From NCBI GenBank assembly GCA_035462225.1, contig DATHUM010000142.1:1-34337 (forward strand): a DNA stretch of 34,337 nt. Direction: 5' to 3'. Shown here piece after piece: positions 139 to 9,414 of this stretch. The notes beneath the pieces are model-generated. The model had not been told where the DNA came from. It saw nothing but the letters and a program-made list of their open reading frames with translations, and did no database searches. A program made the translations under genes and the position numbers. Position 1 is the first letter of the stretch; each line of letters starts with the position of its first letter. Source of the stretch: Jiangellaceae bacterium. GTDB lineage: Bacteria > Actinomycetota > Actinomycetes > Jiangellales > Jiangellaceae.

Positions 139-204
139 AGAACCGTTATCAATGGGGAGTTGCTCCCGGCAACCCGAGCGCAACTCCCCATTGATAACGG
201 TTCT
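139..204. terminator. Perfect 25-bp inverted repeat (AGAACCGTTATCAATGGGGAGTTGC / GCAACTCCCCATTGATAACGGTTCT) with a 16-nt loop. Probable intrinsic terminator or stem-loop element 3' of the epoxide hydrolase gene.
   Basis: Arms 139-163 and 180-204 are exact reverse complements. The element lies 17 nt past the TAG stop (221-223) of the minus-strand gene. The arms are AT-richer than the flanks. No U-tract follows. Confidence 0.5.
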
Positions 205-2496: not shown

Positions 2497-3501
2497 GTGG
2501 ACGACACAACGGACCTGGTCGCGGCAGCACGCCATGGCGACTCCGGCGCGTTCGAGCGTCTCGTCGCTCCGCGCCGGCGGGAGTTGTACGCGCACTGCTA
2601 CCGCATGCTCGGATCGGTTCAGGATGCGGAGGACGCCGTGCAAGAATCCCTCCTGGCCGCATGGCGAGGGTTGCCCGGCTTCGAGGGCCGCGCCACGCTT
2701 CGCGCATGGCTCTACCGAATAGCGACCAACGTTTGCCTACGGCTGATCGACCGGCGCCCCCGGCGAGTCTTGTCTCCCGAGTACGGCCCGCCCCGCGCCG
2801 ACACCGCCGATCTCGGCGAACCGGTGACCGAACCGATCTGGCTGGAACCGATCGTCACCGATATCCAGGACGACGCCCAGGACCCGGAAACCAGGTACGT
2901 CCAGCGCGAGAGCATAGAGCTGGCCTTCGTGGCCGCGCTGCAACACCTGCCGGGCACTCAGCGCGCCGTGCTGATCCTCCGGGACGTCCTGCAGTTCTCC
3001 GCCGCCGAGGTCGCCGCACACCTGGACACCACACCGGTGTCGGTCAACAGCGCCTTGCAGCGCGCCCGCAAGTCGCTGGGTGAGCGCATCCCTCGTGACA
3101 GCCAGCAAGCCGAGCTGGCCGCCCTCGGCGCGGAGGGCCGGCGCGAACTCGTCGAAGCCTTCGTCACGGCGTGGGAACGGGCCGACATCGCCGCGCTACT
3201 GGAACTGCTGACCGAGGACGCACGGTTCACCATGCCGCCGCTGCCGGCCTGGTTCCTGGGCCGTGACGACGTCGGCCGGTTCTTCACCGACCGGGTGTTC
3301 GCTACTTCGTGGCGGTTGATACCGCTGAGCGTGAACGCCCAGCTGGGCTTCGCGTGCTATTTGCGCGAGTCCGGCGCCGACACCTTCCGCCTCGGCGCCG
3401 TCAACGCCCTGACGCTGCGGGACGGAAAGATCGCAGTGATCAACGGCTTCATCGACCCAGACCTGTACCGGCATTTCGGGCTGTCACATGAGCTCTTCTA
3501 G
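2497..3501 (+). CDS. ECF (sigma-70 family) RNA polymerase sigma factor with C-terminal NTF2/SnoaL-like extension (SigG / TIGR02960-like)
   Basis: 334 aa. Region 2 (AEDAVQESLLAAWRGLPGFEGRATLRAWLYRIATNVCL) and region 4 HTH (QRAVLILRDVLQFSAAEVAAHLDTTPVSVNSALQRARKSL) are followed by about 130 extra C-terminal residues. GTG start. Confidence 0.88.
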   Translation: MDDTTDLVAAARHGDSGAFERLVAPRRRELYAHCYRMLGSVQDAEDAVQESLLAAWRGLPGFEGRATLRAWLYRIATNVCLRLIDRRPRRVLSPEYGPPRADTADLGEPVTEPIWLEPIVTDIQDDAQDPETRYVQRESIELAFVAALQHLPGTQRAVLILRDVLQFSAAEVAAHLDTTPVSVNSALQRARKSLGERIPRDSQQAELAALGAEGRRELVEAFVTAWERADIAALLELLTEDARFTMPPLPAWFLGRDDVGRFFTDRVFATSWRLIPLSVNAQLGFACYLRESGADTFRLGAVNALTLRDGKIAVINGFIDPDLYRHFGLSHELF

Positions 3502-3546
3502 GCCACAACCCGTCCCTTCCGACGCGCGAAGGGGCTCGGTCGGCCG

Positions 3547-3754
3547 CACCAAGATTCCACGGTGTCGCGATCCTCTGACACCAAGCCTCCGCGGTGCGGT
3601 GGACTGTTCACACCAAGCTTCCACAGTGCGGCGGGGTGTTAGCACCAAGCTTCCACGGTGCCGCCGTCCATACACACCAAGCTTCCACAATGCGGCTATT
3701 GCAGCATTGTGGAACCTTGGTGCCACCTCATAGCGACTCCGTGGAAGCTCGGTG
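3547..3754. repeat. Phased array of seven copies of an 18-bp motif (consensus CACCAAGCTTCCACGGTG): five direct copies and two inverted copies, all on a 32-bp register
   Basis: Direct copies start at 3547, 3579, 3611, 3643 and 3675. Inverted copies lie at 3705-3722 and 3737-3754. Each copy has 0-3 mismatches to the consensus, and the 14-bp spacers are unrelated. Located between the convergent sigma-factor and DHFR-like genes. Confidence 0.9.
3675..3722. terminator. Long hairpin formed by array copies 5 and 6 (19-bp stem with one mismatch). Candidate bidirectional terminator.
   Basis: CACCAAGCTTCCACAATGC (3675-3693) pairs with GCATTGTGGAACCTTGGTG (3704-3722). Sits between the 3' ends of convergent genes. 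Confidence 0.45.
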
Positions 3755-3786
3755 CCGAGCACGCCGACGGCGAAGCCCGGCCGCGA

Positions 3787-4383
3787 TCAGCGAGGCGAAG
3801 GGTCGGGCAGAGCGGCATATTGGGCCAGCAGAAGGCTCGACCCGTGCCAGGTCCGGGTGCCGACAAGTCGCAGAGACGACGCTGGTTTGCCGTCGAAGAT
3901 CGGCGTCCCGTCACCCAAAACACCGGCGCCGATCATCAGATGCAGCTCGTCCACCAGGCCGGCCGACAGCAGGTCGTTCCACAGCGTATGGCTACCGAAG
4001 ATCAGGATGTCACCGCCGGGTTCGCTCTTCAGATCCGCCACCCGTTCCATCGCCTCAGCGCCTGGGACGATCGTGGTGTTGTGCCACGGTGCGGTCTGCT
4101 CCAGCCGCAGGGTGTTCGAGACGACCACCTTGTCGATGGCGTCGTTGAGCCGCGATATCTCCCGCTCCACCGGCGGGGCATCGGGGTTATCGGCGACCGG
4201 CGGCCAGTAGCTTCTGAACAGTTCGAATGTTTTGCGACCGAGCAGCAGCGTGCTCGCCGCCCGCAACCGTTCGGCGTTGTAGTCGTCGAACCCCACATCG
4301 AACGGCAGTGCCATCACATCGCCGCCAGGCGCCTCGTACCGGCCGTCGAGCGACATGATGTTACAGACGATCAGCTTTCGCAT
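3787..4383 (-). CDS. Dihydrofolate reductase family protein (RibD C-terminal domain type)
   Basis: 198 aa. MRKLIVCNIMSLDGRYE...LLLGRKTFELF...ILIFGSHTLWNDLLSAGLVDELHLMI matches the RibD_C/YwjB-like pattern. Confidence 0.85.
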   Translation of the reverse strand: MRKLIVCNIMSLDGRYEAPGGDVMALPFDVGFDDYNAERLRAASTLLLGRKTFELFRSYWPPVADNPDAPPVEREISRLNDAIDKVVVSNTLRLEQTAPWHNTTIVPGAEAMERVADLKSEPGGDILIFGSHTLWNDLLSAGLVDELHLMIGAGVLGDGTPIFDGKPASSLRLVGTRTWHGSSLLLAQYAALPDPSPR

Positions 4384-4475
4384 CTGGGCGTCTCCTTCCG
4401 GATGGGCGCGTTCGGCCCGACCATCCGTTGAGAGACAGCCCGGTGCGCTGATTCACCGGTCCTGGCGGAACTTCT

Positions 4476-5543
4476 TCACCGTTTTCCGGCTTCCGCGGCC
4501 TCCGCCTCCGCCTTGGCGTTGCTCACCGCTTGCCGAGCATCCTTGACCGCTTGATCGGCGGCGGACTCCGCGTCCATGGCGAGTTGATCACCTGAAGTCA
4601 GCTCACGCGTGCTCTTCTCGCCTTCGAGCGATTGCGCAACTTCCTCCGCGCCGGCTTCGGCGACCGGCGCGCCCGGACCGGTGTCGCGGCTGAACGCTTC
4701 GGTGATCGTCCGCACGGCTTGAGTCAGCTCGCCTGGGATCACCCAGAACGTGTTTCCGCTCTGGGCGAGCTCCGGCAGCGTCTCAAGGTACTTGTACGCC
4801 AGCACCTTCGGATCGGCATCGTGGCGGTGCACGGCCTTGAAGACGAGATCGACGGCTTTGGCCTCACCGTCGGCTCGGAGAATGGAGGCCTCACGGGCAC
4901 CCTGCGCCTCGAGGATCTGCTGCTGCCTGGTTCCCTCGGCGGTCAGAATCTTGGACTGCCGGTCCCCCTCGGCATGCAGGATCGCCGCACGCTTGTCGCG
5001 TTCGGCGCGCATCTGCTTTTCCATCGCTTCCTTGATGGTGGACGGCGGGTCAATCGCCTTTATCTCGACCCGGTTCACCCGGATTCCCCACTTGCCGGTC
5101 GCGTCGTCCAGCACAGTGCGCAGCCGCGTGTTGATCTCCTCACGCGAGGTCAGGGTCTGCTCGAGGTCCATGCTGCCGATGACGTTTCGCAGGGTTGTGA
5201 CGGTGAGCTGATCGATGGCCTGCAGGTAATCGGCCACCTCGTACGCGGCCGCGCGCGGATCGGTGATCTGGTAGTAGAGCACCGTGTCGATGTTCACCAC
5301 CAGGTTGTCCTCGGTGATCACCGGCCTGGGATCGGACGAGTACACCTGCTCGCGGACGTCGAGTTTGGTGTTGATCCGATCCGCGACCGGGACGACGAAG
5401 TTGAGGCCCGGCTGCAGGGTGGTGCGGTACCGCCCGAATCGCTCGACGTTGTACCTGCGCGCCTGGGGAACGATGCGGACCGTGGAGATCACCAGGAATA
5501 CCATCAGGACCGCTGCTATGACGAGAGGTATCAGAAGTTCCAT
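4476..5543 (-). CDS. SPFH/band-7 (stomatin/QmcA-like) membrane protein
   Basis: 355 aa. N-terminal TM helix, then VRIVPQARRYNVERFGRYRTTLQPGLNFVVP and NRVEIKAIDPP...AMEKQMRAERDKRA, with a coiled Ala/Glu-rich tail. Confidence 0.92.
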   Translation of the reverse strand: MELLIPLVIAAVLMVFLVISTVRIVPQARRYNVERFGRYRTTLQPGLNFVVPVADRINTKLDVREQVYSSDPRPVITEDNLVVNIDTVLYYQITDPRAAAYEVADYLQAIDQLTVTTLRNVIGSMDLEQTLTSREEINTRLRTVLDDATGKWGIRVNRVEIKAIDPPSTIKEAMEKQMRAERDKRAAILHAEGDRQSKILTAEGTRQQQILEAQGAREASILRADGEAKAVDLVFKAVHRHDADPKVLAYKYLETLPELAQSGNTFWVIPGELTQAVRTITEAFSRDTGPGAPVAEAGAEEVAQSLEGEKSTRELTSGDQLAMDAESAADQAVKDARQAVSNAKAEAEAAEAGKR

Positions 5544-6008: not shown

Positions 6009-6131
6009 TTCGATCCGACCTCCCCTGGGGGGTGGCTAGCCATTAACCGTACCTCCGAAATCTCCGTGAGAATCAATCAACAGCAAACGTGCGACGGGCC
6101 GTTATGCGATCGAAACTGGCAGGCTTGTCCC

Positions 6132-6524
6132 ATGGATAGGCAGCACGTGATGAACTGGGTGGCGGCTTACGAACGGGCGTGGCGGACCCCCGGGACGAAC
6201 ACCCTCGGCTCGATATTCACCGAGTCCGCCAGCTACGTTCAGGCACCGTACGCCGAGCCGGTGCACGGGCTGACGGCCATCGCGAAGATGTGGGAAGCGG
6301 AGCGCGATGGGCCGGCCGAGATCTTCGAGCTGACCAGCAGCATCGTCGCCGTCGATGGAGACACCGCAGTGGTGCGGGCGGAGGTGTCCTACGGGCCGCC
6401 GACCAACCAGGATTTCCGCGACCTCTGGATCATCCGCTTCGCGGAGGACGGCCGCTGTTACGCATTCGAAGAATGGCCGTTCGCACCTCGCAAGCCGGCG
6501 ACTGCGGCGGCGGACGGCGGCTGA
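6132..6524 (+). CDS. NTF2/SnoaL-like family protein
   Basis: About 130 aa. VMNWVAAYERAWRT...DGDTAVVRAEVSY...FRDLWIIRFAEDGRCYAFEEW resembles an NTF2-like fold. ATG at 6132 preferred over 6066. Confidence 0.7.
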   Translation: MDRQHVMNWVAAYERAWRTPGTNTLGSIFTESASYVQAPYAEPVHGLTAIAKMWEAERDGPAEIFELTSSIVAVDGDTAVVRAEVSYGPPTNQDFRDLWIIRFAEDGRCYAFEEWPFAPRKPATAAADGG

Positions 6525-6584
6525 ACTCCCACCGACACCGTGTCGAGACCGAAGGCGTACGATCGCGACGGCGGGCGCCCGCGG

Positions 6585-7145
6585 TCACGGCCGGATGCGG
6601 TAGCGCAAGTACACGACGCCGGCGTCGAATCTCCGCTCGTGCTGCAACTCGAGCCCGACTCGGACGTGACCCGGGAACACCTGCACCCCGCCACCCACGA
6701 TGATCGGCGTGACGAACAAGTGGCACTCGTCGACCAGGCCGGCCAGGAACGCCTGCGCGGCCAGTTCGGGGCCGCCGATGGAGATGTCACGCTCCTCGGT
6801 AGTCTTCAGCCGCCGGACGGCGTCGGGGTCGAACTCGCGCTCTATCCGCGTCCGCTCCGAGGAGACCCGTTCCAGCGTCCTGGTGTACACGATCTTGTCG
6901 GTGGCCTGCCAGATCGCCGCGAAATCACTCATCACGGCCGGCAGGTCGGCCTGAGTATCGACCCCATCCCAGCCGGCCATCACCTCGTACATGCGCCGCC
7001 CGTACAGGTACGTCCCGATCGGCCGCTCGAGATCGTTGATGAAGGCGTGCACCTCATCGTCCGGCACCGCCCAGTCGAAGTTGCCGTCCTTATCGGCGAC
7101 GCGGCCATCGAGCGAGGTGATGGCGGAGTAGATCAGCTTGGCCAT
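6585..7145 (-). CDS. Dihydrofolate reductase family protein (RibD_C type), second divergent paralog
   Basis: 186 aa. MAKLIYSAITSLDGRVADKDGNFDW...YLYGRRMYEVM...ISIGGPELAAQAFLAGLVDECHLFVTPIIVGGG. Confidence 0.85.
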   Translation of the reverse strand: MAKLIYSAITSLDGRVADKDGNFDWAVPDDEVHAFINDLERPIGTYLYGRRMYEVMAGWDGVDTQADLPAVMSDFAAIWQATDKIVYTRTLERVSSERTRIEREFDPDAVRRLKTTEERDISIGGPELAAQAFLAGLVDECHLFVTPIIVGGGVQVFPGHVRVGLELQHERRFDAGVVYLRYRIRP

Positions 7146-7563: not shown

Positions 7564-7833
7564 TCCTTCTGCGGCTCGACCGATCCGTCACTGCCCTGAC
7601 GGATGGGACGCCGAAGATGTGACGGCCGGTAGGACGGAATCCCTGACGCAGACATGAAGGCAAGTGGCCGTCCGATGGTAGGGTCACCTACAGCGTCGAT
7701 TCCCAGCAGGCTGAGCCGTGCCGACAAGAGGCCCTCAGACCCCTCGACCGGTGACCTTGGCCTCGTGATCGACGGCCGATCAACTGCCATGATCATTATA
7801 GCGGTCGTATGCCCTCGGAAGGGAGGGGTCGCG

Positions 7834-9330
7834 ATGCGTACCGAAGTGGCGACGTCGCAACCCGGATCGGTCCAATTGAAGCGCGAACTCGGTACTGGAA
7901 CGTCCACCGCGCTGGTAATCGGAAACATGGTGGGGTCCGGGGTGTTCTTGCTGCCCGCCTCGCTGGCTGGGGTTGTCCTGATCTCAGGGTCGGGGTCGCT
8001 GCTGGCCTGGCTGCTCGGCGGGATGGCGGCAATGCTCCTTGCGTTGGTGTTCGCCAACCTGGGGCGGGCCTACCCGAAGACCGGAGGACCGTACGCGTAC
8101 TCGCGGCGAGCCTTCGGCGACTTCATCGGCTTCTGGATGGCCTGGGGTTACTGGATCGCGGCCTGGGTCGGCAATGCGGCCATTACCGTGGCCTTCGTCG
8201 GCTACGCGTCGGTGTTCTGGCCTGAGCTGGGCACGAACAACCTGCTCGCAGCGCTGGTTGGGATCGCGGTGGTCTGGCTCCTCACGGCAGTGAACGTGCT
8301 GGGCGTCCGGCAAGGCGGCATGGTGCAACTGGTGACCACGATCCTGAAATTCGTCCCGCTGGCGGTCATCGGGATCATCGGGCTGTTCTTCATCGACGGC
8401 GGGAACTTCACTCCAGTCGCTCCGAACGGGTGGGGTCCCGGCGACGGCGTGCTCGGTGGCATCACCGCTGCTGCTGCGCTCACGCTGTGGGCCTTCATCG
8501 GTCTGGAGTCCGCGACTGTCCCGGCCGAGGAGGTCAAGGACCCGGAGCGAACGATCCCCCGGGCCAGCATCCTGGGAACCGGAGTGACCACGATCGTCTA
8601 CATTCTGGCGACCATTGCCATCGTGGGGATCATTCCCGTCTCCCAGTTGGCCGAGTCGACCAGCCCGTTCGCCGACGCGGCCGGGGAGATCTTCGGCGGC
8701 AACTGGGGCAAGGTCATCGCGTTGGTGGCGATGATCTCGACGTTCGGGGCACTCAACGGCTGGATTCTGATCCAGGGCCGCATCCCGATGGCAGCGGCCA
8801 GGGACGGTCTGTTCCCGAAGGTGTTCGCCAACCTCACCCACCGCGGCCGGACTCCATGGGTCGGCCTCGTGGCGTCCTCGGCTCTCATCACCGGCCTGAT
8901 GCTGATGAACTACTCCAAGGGACTGGTCGAGCAGTTCACGGCCATCATCTACCTGGCCACCCTGACCACGCTGGTTCCCTACGCGTTCTCGGCGGCGGCG
9001 CAGGTGTACCTGCTGTTCACCGACCGCGAGCGGTTCGAGGGACGCCGGCTGACCCGCGACTCCATCGTCGCGCTCGTCGCGTTCGCCTTCTCCTTCTGGG
9101 CGATCTACGGGGCCGGGCTGGAGTACGTCGGTCAGGGCTACCTGCTGCTGCTGGCCGGGGTGCCGGTCTACCTGTTCCTGAAGTGGCGCCAGTCCCGAAC
9201 AACAACCCCACTGCCGGCCGTGGTGGTGCCGCCCGAAACGGACGTCGGTGCGCCCGAAATGGACGTCGGTGCGCCCGAAATGGCGTCGATGACCACCGGC
9301 AGCGAGCCCGGCCGGGTCGCGGTCAAGTGA
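7834..9330 (+). CDS. APC-superfamily amino acid permease
   Basis: About 498 aa and multi-TM. Signature LGTGTSTALVIGNMVGSGVFLLP. ATG at 7834 is preceded by GGAAGGGAGGGG. The upstream 60 aa of the ORF-track frame do not look like protein. Confidence 0.9.
   Translation: MRTEVATSQPGSVQLKRELGTGTSTALVIGNMVGSGVFLLPASLAGVVLISGSGSLLAWLLGGMAAMLLALVFANLGRAYPKTGGPYAYSRRAFGDFIGFWMAWGYWIAAWVGNAAITVAFVGYASVFWPELGTNNLLAALVGIAVVWLLTAVNVLGVRQGGMVQLVTTILKFVPLAVIGIIGLFFIDGGNFTPVAPNGWGPGDGVLGGITAAAALTLWAFIGLESATVPAEEVKDPERTIPRASILGTGVTTIVYILATIAIVGIIPVSQLAESTSPFADAAGEIFGGNWGKVIALVAMISTFGALNGWILIQGRIPMAAARDGLFPKVFANLTHRGRTPWVGLVASSALITGLMLMNYSKGLVEQFTAIIYLATLTTLVPYAFSAAAQVYLLFTDRERFEGRRLTRDSIVALVAFAFSFWAIYGAGLEYVGQGYLLLLAGVPVYLFLKWRQSRTTTPLPAVVVPPETDVGAPEMDVGAPEMASMTTGSEPGRVAVK
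9231..9283 (+). repeat. In-frame 21-bp tandem duplication (2.5 copies) in the permease C-terminal tail
   Basis: GCCCGAAA[C/T]GGACGTCGGTGC occurs at 9231-9251 and 9252-9272, with a partial third copy. It encodes PETDVGA PEMDVGA PEMA. Confidence 0.85.
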
Positions 9331-9343
9331 CCAACCGAGCAAC

Positions 9344-9371
9344 CCTTCGCGCCGCCGTCGCGGCGCGAAGG
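9344..9371 (+). terminator. GC-rich hairpin between the permease and GTPase genes (terminator or attenuator)
   Basis: CCTTCGCGCCGC (9344-9355) / loop CGTC / GCGGCGCGAAGG (9360-9371), a 12-bp perfect stem. Confidence 0.45.
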
Positions 9372-9414
9372 CGTGCTCCTGCGAATGGATGACGACCAAC
9401 AAGGAGGCACGGAG

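Follow-up and report, generated by a model that had tools for sequence, protein, structure and literature searches.

Two convergent genes lie near the left end of the window, by which we mean the whole stretch of 34,337 nucleotides analyzed here. Pfam scans identified one as a gene for an ECF sigma factor with a SnoaL_2 C-terminal domain and the other as a gene for a RibD_C-family reductase. The 285 bp between them hold an array of seven copies of the 18-mer CACCAAGCTTCCACGGTG, each with 0 to 3 mismatches. The two genes are given as context; the features of the locus are as follows.

2497-3501, + strand: ECF sigma factor gene with a SnoaL_2 C-terminal domain (Pfam); context, outside the repeat
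3502-3786 (285 bp), no strand: intergenic region holding the whole array, between the sigma factor stop (3501) and the RibD_C stop (3787)
3547-3564, + strand: unit 1 core, CACCAAGATTCCACGGTG, 1 mismatch, the unit farthest out toward the sigma factor gene (weight-matrix score, 32.8 bits)
3579-3596, + strand: unit 2 core, CACCAAGCCTCCGCGGTG, 2 mismatches (motif search, weight matrix)
3611-3628, + strand: unit 3 core, CACCAAGCTTCCACAGTG, 1 mismatch (motif search, weight matrix)
3643-3660, + strand: unit 4 core, exact consensus (motif search, weight matrix)
3675-3692, + strand: unit 5 core, the inner "AATG-type" unit CACCAAGCTTCCACAATG (motif search)
3693-3704, no strand: center spacer CGGCTATTGCAG, 12 nt, near-palindromic
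3705-3722, − strand: unit 6 core, inner AATG-type unit in reverse (motif search, weight matrix)
3737-3754, − strand: unit 7 core, outermost unit on the RibD_C side (motif search, weight matrix)
3675-3722, no strand: central hairpin, a cruciform-capable palindrome with 22-nt arms (3675-3696 and 3701-3722) that are 91% complementary and a 4-nt loop
3642-3755, no strand: second foldback tier, enclosing the central hairpin through pairing of units 4 and 7 (87% complementary)
3787-4383, − strand: RibD_C-family reductase gene, convergent with the sigma factor gene (Pfam); context only

Five forward units thus follow one another at 32-bp steps, a single 30-bp step spans the orientation flip because the center spacer has 12 nt instead of 14 nt, and two reverse units complete the array. 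The 18-mer matched seven times, compared to 0.06 matches expected from dinucleotide shuffles, and had no further match anywhere in the 34-kb window. A 25-bp weight matrix built from other loci only found the same seven sites alone, and TRF reported a period of 32 (score, 119). These results agree with the first-pass annotation of this DNA as to the number, coordinates, orientations, and mismatches of the units and as to the uniqueness of the motif within the window. The 32-bp phasing that it described holds for the same-orientation steps and breaks down at the flip. Its description of the spacers as unrelated needed amendment, in that the conserved unit extends into the spacer edges (CnR ahead of the core and YCGC behind it) and two spacers are identical at 9 of 14 positions; apart from this, the description stands. 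Pfam and the 285-bp gap also bore out the placement of the array directly downstream of the ECF sigma factor gene in a convergent gap. The two open reading frames (ORFs) that span the array had been dismissed as spurious and the array taken to be noncoding, and this was upheld: neither ORF has a Pfam match, and both failed the codon-position GC test.

The genes of the window are otherwise ordinary chromosomal genes with metabolic and regulatory functions, as judged from Pfam scans of the main ORFs. The same scans found no rep, par, mobile, plasmid, phage, transposase, or integrase gene and, as the annotation had also stated, no cas gene. A WYL/HTH regulator gene and the sigma factor gene adjoin the array (Pfam). 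Elsewhere in the window, a stand-alone SnoaL_2 protein (6066-6524, + strand) and a second RibD_C paralog (6585-7145, − strand) form a pair (6066-7145) that echoes the SnoaL tail of the sigma factor and the RibD_C gene beside the array. Three tandem copies of a 21-bp unit (9225-9288, 93% matches) lie inside the 3′ end of an amino acid permease ORF; this repeat is in frame and so would be a 7-residue peptide repeat.

Folding predictions pointed to extensive secondary structure in the array as a whole. Folded as DNA, the central hairpin formed by units 5 and 6 gave −21 to −24 kcal/mol (z = −7.3 and −8.4), and the second tier, with the spacers as internal loops, gave −40.9 kcal/mol (z = −8.7). Folded as RNA, the whole intergenic region (3502-3786) had z scores of −6.5 (+ strand) and −6.75 (− strand). 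A single unit folded no better than its shuffles (z about −0.5). A promoter and terminator scan found no terminator-like site, no promoter, and no T-run after the hairpin; of the two parts of a canonical intrinsic terminator, the GC-rich hairpin is present and the U-tract was not found. Since actinobacterial terminators often have no U-tracts, the hairpin may nevertheless function as a terminator. Scanning positions 3000 to 4500 against Rfam 15 returned one sub-threshold chance hit, to a plant microRNA model (24 bits, compared to a gathering score of 110 bits).

Two other hairpins in the window also follow genes. A near-perfect palindrome at 139-204, just downstream of an epoxide hydrolase gene (221-1381, − strand), has 31-nt arms (AGAACCGTTATCAATGGGGAGTTGCTCCCGG and its complement) that are 94% complementary and a 4-nt loop; its sequence is unrelated to the array, and it is kept at the orthologous position in locus L060 (13839-13859). 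The other (9337-9378), whose arms measure 19 nt and whose loop measures 4 nt, directly follows the permease gene (7654-9330, + strand) and resembles a terminator without a T-run. Given these two cases, hairpin-type gene ends seem to be usual in this organism.

The search of genomes and relatives that the first-pass annotation had proposed revealed a dispersed family. We found 47 further arrays of the same motif in public Jiangellaceae genomes and metagenomes, for a total of 48 arrays and 224 units. Scanning one genome per species for the exact pattern yielded 33 loci, and a metagenome scan yielded 29 more arrays. Hit contigs were most numerous in samples with IDs beginning Ga0299913, Ga0299914, and Ga0299907. 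Matches within the Jiangellaceae were clusters of units, located on at least 20 contigs of Jiangellaceae metagenome-assembled genomes (MAGs) and in the genera Phytoactinopolyspora and Haloactinopolyspora. The MAGs with clusters were SMAG_U1797 (about 9 contigs), SMAG_U2157, SMAG_U1784, and CMU_early.final.5, and clustered units were also present in Phytoactinopolyspora endophytica and Haloactinopolyspora alba, whose arrays (L012 and L016) are short. Matches outside the family were isolated single units, in about the number expected by chance. Viral contigs contained 0 motif matches, and BLAST of the array against plasmid and phage collections gave no match. About 8 to 9 arrays were detected in the best-sampled MAG. 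Because the exact pattern catches only about half of the arrays (detection probability, about 0.5), we estimate that a genome carries ~15 to 20 arrays, or about 100 units, a rough figure given that the MAGs are incomplete. This amounts to tens of arrays per genome and not to the hundreds of copies that characterize REP/BIME families. The annotation had set against its own reading a family of hundreds of REP/MITE-like units dispersed at gene ends with no preferred register; the units did prove to be dispersed at gene ends, in tens of arrays and with the 32-bp register kept.

Many of the contigs break at these arrays. Metagenome contig L001, which is identical to the window, terminates within the array. 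Contigs L039, L042, L048, L052, and L053, like L001, begin or end inside an array or within tens of bases of one, and L057, L058, L067, L070, and L076 begin or end at or near one. Contig ends inside arrays are expected for a multicopy repeat, and short-read assembly of these genomes is evidently interrupted by it. In SMAG_U1797, an array together with about 200 bp of adjoining DNA occurs in two or three copies with 78% identity (L025 5108-5526, L027 3057-3496, and L030; L027 and L030 are 93% identical), which suggests either segmental duplication of array-containing DNA or a mixture of strains in the bin. A literature search on Jiangellaceae repeats, on REP or REPIN/RAYT elements in actinobacteria, and on sites phased at 32 bp found nothing relevant. 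With no description of such an element retrieved, the repeat family is apparently new.

Comparison across loci defined the anatomy of the family. The conserved unit reaches beyond the 18-mer to about 25 bp (C-n-R-CACCAAGCTTCCACRRTG-Y-n-G-C in the logo). The invariant bases of the core are C1 A2 C3 C4, G7, T10 C11 C12, and T17 G18. Its frame, CnR-CACC-N10-GGTG-YnG (C-n-R-CACC-AAGCTTCCAC-GGTG-Y-n-G(C)), is pseudo-palindromic and internally asymmetric, and it leaves about 7 free bases per 32-bp unit. Among 205 distinct units, no candidate pair of positions within the unit covaried; Watson-Crick counts were those expected from the marginals, with a mutual information of about 0. Since a unit shows neither a fold of its own nor covariation, it is a sequence motif and not a stem-loop of the REP type. 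In the 48 arrays, same-orientation steps measured 32 bp in 100 cases, 31 bp in 24, 30 bp in 18, and 33 bp in 3, and where the spacer was unique within its array, 49 of 61 steps were exactly 32 bp. The 32-bp register noticed in the window, corresponding to about three helical turns, is therefore a genuine, constrained property of the family.

Orientation is also regular. Forward-to-reverse junctions measured 30 bp in 21 cases and 62 bp in 7 (one unit missed), and reverse-to-forward junctions were seen only twice, so that a typical array consists of n forward units, a center, and m reverse units. Nearly every array has one 12-nt center, with the near-palindromic consensus YCGC-wATr-GCGR, and the units beside the center are usually of the AATG-type variant (...CAATG) across the family. 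The cores of opposite arms are complementary; their spacers are not, with no complementarity beyond the 4-nt unit edge. Spacers are locus specific, and no spacer types common to nonorthologous arrays, comparable to the linkers of BIMEs, were found. Some arrays (L038/L081, L056/L059, L018, L048, L033, L012, and L014) have all units in one orientation and still contain exactly one 12-nt spacer of the center type. The phased frame with one center is universal, and the foldback is common but not universal. Chimeric units also occur (for example, CACCAAGCTTCC-TTGGTG). Several resemblances were considered and judged to be partial or coincidental: DnaA boxes (TTCCACA compared to TTGTCCACA), −35 elements of ECF promoters (GGAAC, present in about 20% of reverse units), an RSS-like CACAGTG, and site I of serine recombinase res sites (12+4+12).

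By a crude GC3-based gene call, nearly every array lies no more than about 100 nt from a gene stop codon. Where both neighbors were called, 11 arrays lay between convergent genes, 8 between tandem genes, and 1 between divergent genes; in tandem contexts, the polarity of the units relative to transcription was mixed. The neighbors are core genes, among them genes for a DEAD-box helicase, an L,D-transpeptidase, RelA/SpoT, Dxr, DinB, ZnuA, TyrS, trigger factor (tig), RNase E/G (rne), and aminotransferases. In about 45 sampled neighborhoods, we found no transposase, integrase, recombinase, rep, par, or cas gene, and no transposase or RAYT gene was among the sampled neighbors. None of the 48 arrays is paired with another around a gene, and the flanks of 44 arrays showed neither a target-site duplication nor a terminal motif past the unit frame. 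Gene families that recur as neighbors are explained by orthologous loci; the presence of RibD_C beside three arrays was set down to coincidence, the paralogs being only 31 to 40% identical.

Orthologous loci allowed us to follow individual arrays. At three loci syntenic with the window, L031 (SMAG_U1797), L051, and L060, an array occupies the same site between the sigma factor and RibD_C genes, with the following numbers of units (RibD_C side + sigma side).

Window: 2+5
L031: 5+4
L051: 3+6
L060: 2+3

Many spacers can be recognized from one of these loci to another. In addition, individual lineages have their own runs of near-identical spacers, the mark of recent tandem duplication; recently duplicated units with identical spacers occur in L007, L031, L018, and L070. 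These comparisons show that arrays grow and shrink by whole 32-bp units, in the manner of a variable-number tandem repeat (VNTR). Orthologous arrays can differ in unit orientation as well (L011 compared to L038 and L019 compared to L028). At the same time, the sigma/RibD_C site is polymorphic for presence of the array. Among more distant orthologs of the gene pair, L091 has a gap of only 2 bp between the two genes and no array, although the MAG has arrays elsewhere; in L088 and L089, a 48-bp gap contains an unrelated perfect hairpin and no array; and L090 has only a degenerate two-unit doublet. Since relatives with the same gene pair do without the array, it is dispensable at this site. The hairpin of L088 (3218-3266; L089 1367-1415) reads GATCTTGAGACAATCCACA..CTGTGGATTGTCTCAAGATC, its inner part (TCCACACTG-TCG) is faintly like the inner end of an array unit, and the L088 sigma factor is 82% identical to that of the window. 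The converse was observed in L029 (SMAG_U1784, 4353-4991), where the sigma factor and RibD_C genes are both gone. What has been retained, again between convergent genes, is a 2+2 array whose spacers are related, together with about 30 nt of its flank. There, the array now lies between a small ORF (about 80 amino acids, with a signal-peptide-like start) and a WYL regulator gene.

Alignment of the orthologous intergenic regions, which had likewise been proposed, compared divergence in cores, spacers, and third codon positions.

Window versus L051: core, 9%; spacer, 12%; third codon position, about 4 to 11%
Window versus L031: core, 8%; spacer, 32%; third codon position, 26 to 36%
Window versus L029: core, 11%; spacer, 45%; third codon position, 30 to 41%

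Core divergence thus stayed at 8 to 11% while that of spacers rose from 12% to 45%, in step with that of third codon positions. The core changes fall at positions that the logo shows to be tolerant (5, 8, 9, 13 to 15, and 17). At the level of sequence, these alignments, together with the prevalence of exact 32-bp steps where spacers are unique, show that the core keeps its invariant positions and the spacer its length while the spacer sequence is free to drift at neutral rates. Such a pattern would be expected if a phased array of protein-binding sites were under purifying selection. Core-restricted gene conversion could mimic part of this signal, and since cores (9%) and spacers (12%) have diverged to about the same extent between the window and L051, the closest orthologs, the apparent constraint may in part reflect conversion among units.

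Taken together, these data leave little doubt that the array belongs to a chromosomal family of intergenic repeats that is dispersed at gene 3′ ends in the Jiangellaceae, and that iteron, centromere, CRISPR, and local operator array are the wrong labels for it. The first-pass annotation had suggested an iteron, a parC-type centromere, or a locus-specific regulator array; the evidence does not support that assignment, since the motif is dispersed behind housekeeping genes and the window holds no rep or par gene. The exclusion of a plasmid origin, a centromere, and a CRISPR-like locus is in our view the key negative result. As a full explanation, we favor, with modest confidence, a REP/BIME-like and VNTR-like family whose units are putative protein recognition sites phased around a dyad center. 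The units would be bound by a sequence-specific DNA-binding protein, perhaps one of the host's own or else the enzyme by which the element was originally dispersed, and this protein would sit on one helix face every three turns. In the window, the central inverted pair would form a 22-bp hairpin and might provide a bidirectional transcription stop or an insulator between the sigma factor and RibD_C genes; at convergent sites, the central hairpin and the bound array would act together as a two-way stop or insulator. The existence of all-forward arrays and of orientation differences between orthologs means that a terminator-hairpin role cannot explain the whole family. The family presumably reached tens of loci by some copying step and then expanded locally by slippage or unequal recombination. 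Because copying to tens of loci is needed, a mobile phase is implied whether the units are protein sites or selfish DNA.

The main rival, which we consider less likely but a serious contender, is that the family is purely selfish or neutral. The arrays would then be a nonautonomous foldback or MITE/REPIN-like element, mobilized in trans (for example, by a Y1/HUH enzyme, with no target duplication) and expanded by slippage, with cores conserved by recent spread and conversion and with no host function. A 25-bp motif cannot recur by point mutation, and its tens of copies at unrelated loci are readily accommodated by such an element, as are the presence or absence of the array at the orthologous sigma/RibD_C site and the recent tandem duplications with identical spacers. 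Chimeric and reoriented units suggest the conversion or recombination that it invokes, the similar divergence of cores and spacers between the closest orthologs (the window and L051) is in keeping with it, and avoidance of divergent (promoter) regions is typical of tolerated selfish repeats. It fits less well with the flanks, in which neither a target-site duplication nor any terminal motif outside the unit frame was seen, or with the neighborhoods, about 45 in number, none of which has a transposase or recombinase gene or a pair of arrays that flanks a gene in the way that REPs flank RAYT genes. Persistence also speaks against it: arrays have lasted at orthologous sites over 30 to 40% synonymous divergence with the invariant core positions and the 32-bp length intact and the spacers randomized, and L029 has kept its array after the loss of both neighboring genes.

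Quite unlikely, in our judgment, is a role confined to RNA or single-stranded DNA, with the foldback serving as a bidirectional intrinsic terminator or 3′-end stabilizer for the sigma factor and RibD_C transcripts and the repeats being mere stem material. Three of the seven units in the window, and whole arrays elsewhere, are unpaired direct repeats, opposite-arm spacers are not complementary, units show no internal covariation, there is neither a U-tract nor an Rfam match, and a hairpin has no need of a strict 32-bp register. These observations have to be set against the strong central hairpin with its two-tier foldback, the position of the array at convergent 3′ ends, the long hairpins just after other genes of the window (139-204 and 9337-9378), and the unrelated perfect hairpin at the orthologous site in L088. 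Finally, a purely local role in the service of a neighboring gene (such as that of the ECF sigma factor or the WYL regulator), be it as an iteron, as a parC-type centromere, or as cooperatively bound operators, would suit phased direct and inverted sites on one helical face beside sigma factor and WYL/HTH regulator genes, but it is highly improbable and largely refuted by arrays at many loci with unrelated neighbors, by the lack of rep, par, or plasmid genes in the window and of matches in plasmid, phage, and viral collections, by the location of arrays at gene 3′ ends instead of promoters, and by sigma factor orthologs without an array and, in L029, an array without the sigma factor gene.

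A more specific version of the favored explanation, that of protein recognition sites phased around a dyad center, is unlikely as it stands, and we put it forward tentatively: the ~15 to 20 arrays of a genome might be phased landing pads for a putative protein that polymerizes every three turns from the dyad center and forms a nucleoprotein barrier at gene 3′ ends. If so, the arrays could be roadblocks to transcription or replication, or insulators of supercoiling or domains between convergent genes, and would constitute a class of genome-organizing sites not described in Actinomycetota. Even in the more general form, units that are protein sites would offer a handle (the 25-bp motif, the strict 32-bp register, and the single dyad center) on how transcription unit ends are marked or how the chromosome is organized in a little-studied and mostly uncultured actinobacterial lineage. 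Were the family selfish DNA after all, it would still be a clean example of a nonpalindromic phased intergenic repeat. The VNTR behavior should be useful for strain typing, and the assembly breaks matter for the binning of Jiangellaceae genomes.

In kind, the family appears by analogy to be closest to REP/BIME and MIRU-type intergenic repeats and not to iterons or centromeres. With the REP/BIME elements of enterobacteria and pseudomonads (including the REPIN doublets mobilized by RAYT), it shares short units of 20 to 40 bp, a strictly extragenic location at gene 3′ ends and in convergent gaps, clustering in direct and inverted orientation, strain-variable copy number, and hairpins formed by inverted pairs. 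REP/BIMEs bind host proteins (gyrase and IHF) and affect termination and mRNA stability. The Jiangellaceae family differs from them in that its unit is not a palindrome or stem-loop, its orientation is blockwise around one center instead of alternating, and its register is a strict 32 bp; moreover, it forms tens of arrays and not hundreds of units, has no unit-flanked RAYT gene at the sampled loci, and resides in an actinobacterial host. MIRU-VNTRs of Mycobacterium and BOX elements of Streptococcus pneumoniae are likewise modular, dispersed intergenic arrays whose tandem unit number varies between close relatives. However, MIRU units measure 40 to 100 bp, are all direct, and are often translationally coupled within operons, BOX has distinct A, B, and C modules, and neither is known to have a dyad center or an 18- to 25-bp core with free spacers.

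Other systems resemble the arrays in layout. Plasmid iterons and parC/sopC-type centromeres consist of asymmetric 17- to 22-bp sites in helical phase (22 or 33 bp) to which one protein binds cooperatively, and binding to the Jiangellaceae units would be comparable, if it occurs. In contrast to the chromosomal, dispersed arrays at gene 3′ ends, those are single loci beside rep or par genes on their replicon. Neither the window nor the sampled loci had the rep gene next to which an iteron-type origin lies or the adjacent parAB or parMR genes of a parC/parS site, and the family occupies many dispersed loci where a centromere has a single locus or a few near the origin. Transposon ends with subterminal transposase sites (Tn7, Mu, and Tn402 types) also set a block of direct sites against a block of inverted sites, and the arms of eukaryotic Foldback elements are also built of short tandem units. 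The Jiangellaceae arrays differ from both in that they enclose no cargo, lack TG...CA tips, and are not bordered by target duplications; a cognate transposase was not seen, and unit numbers change in situ. As for MITEs, which have terminal inverted repeats and a target-site duplication, the arms of the arrays are inverted, but the 44 arrays with analyzed flanks had no duplication or terminal motif. The arrays do resemble MITEs in being present at some orthologous sites and absent from others. CRISPRs share regularly spaced conserved repeats with variable spacers; they are direct repeats of 23 to 55 bp in one orientation, with unique spacers of 21 to 72 bp and cas genes nearby. The exclusion of CRISPR in the first-pass annotation was sound: the Jiangellaceae repeat is 18 to 25 bp with a variable part of 7 to 14 bp, orientations are mixed, neighboring spacers are often duplicates, and the genomes contain tens of small arrays, with no cas domains in the window.

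Two minor repeats were seen beside arrays at other loci. A duplicated ACATCAAA(G/A)TGTCAA motif lies to the left of the L027/L030 array (L027, about 2990-3050; L030, about 70-135), and about 3 tandem copies of the 14-bp sequence CAAGTCGACAAGGT lie to the right of the L019 array (about 1050-1095).
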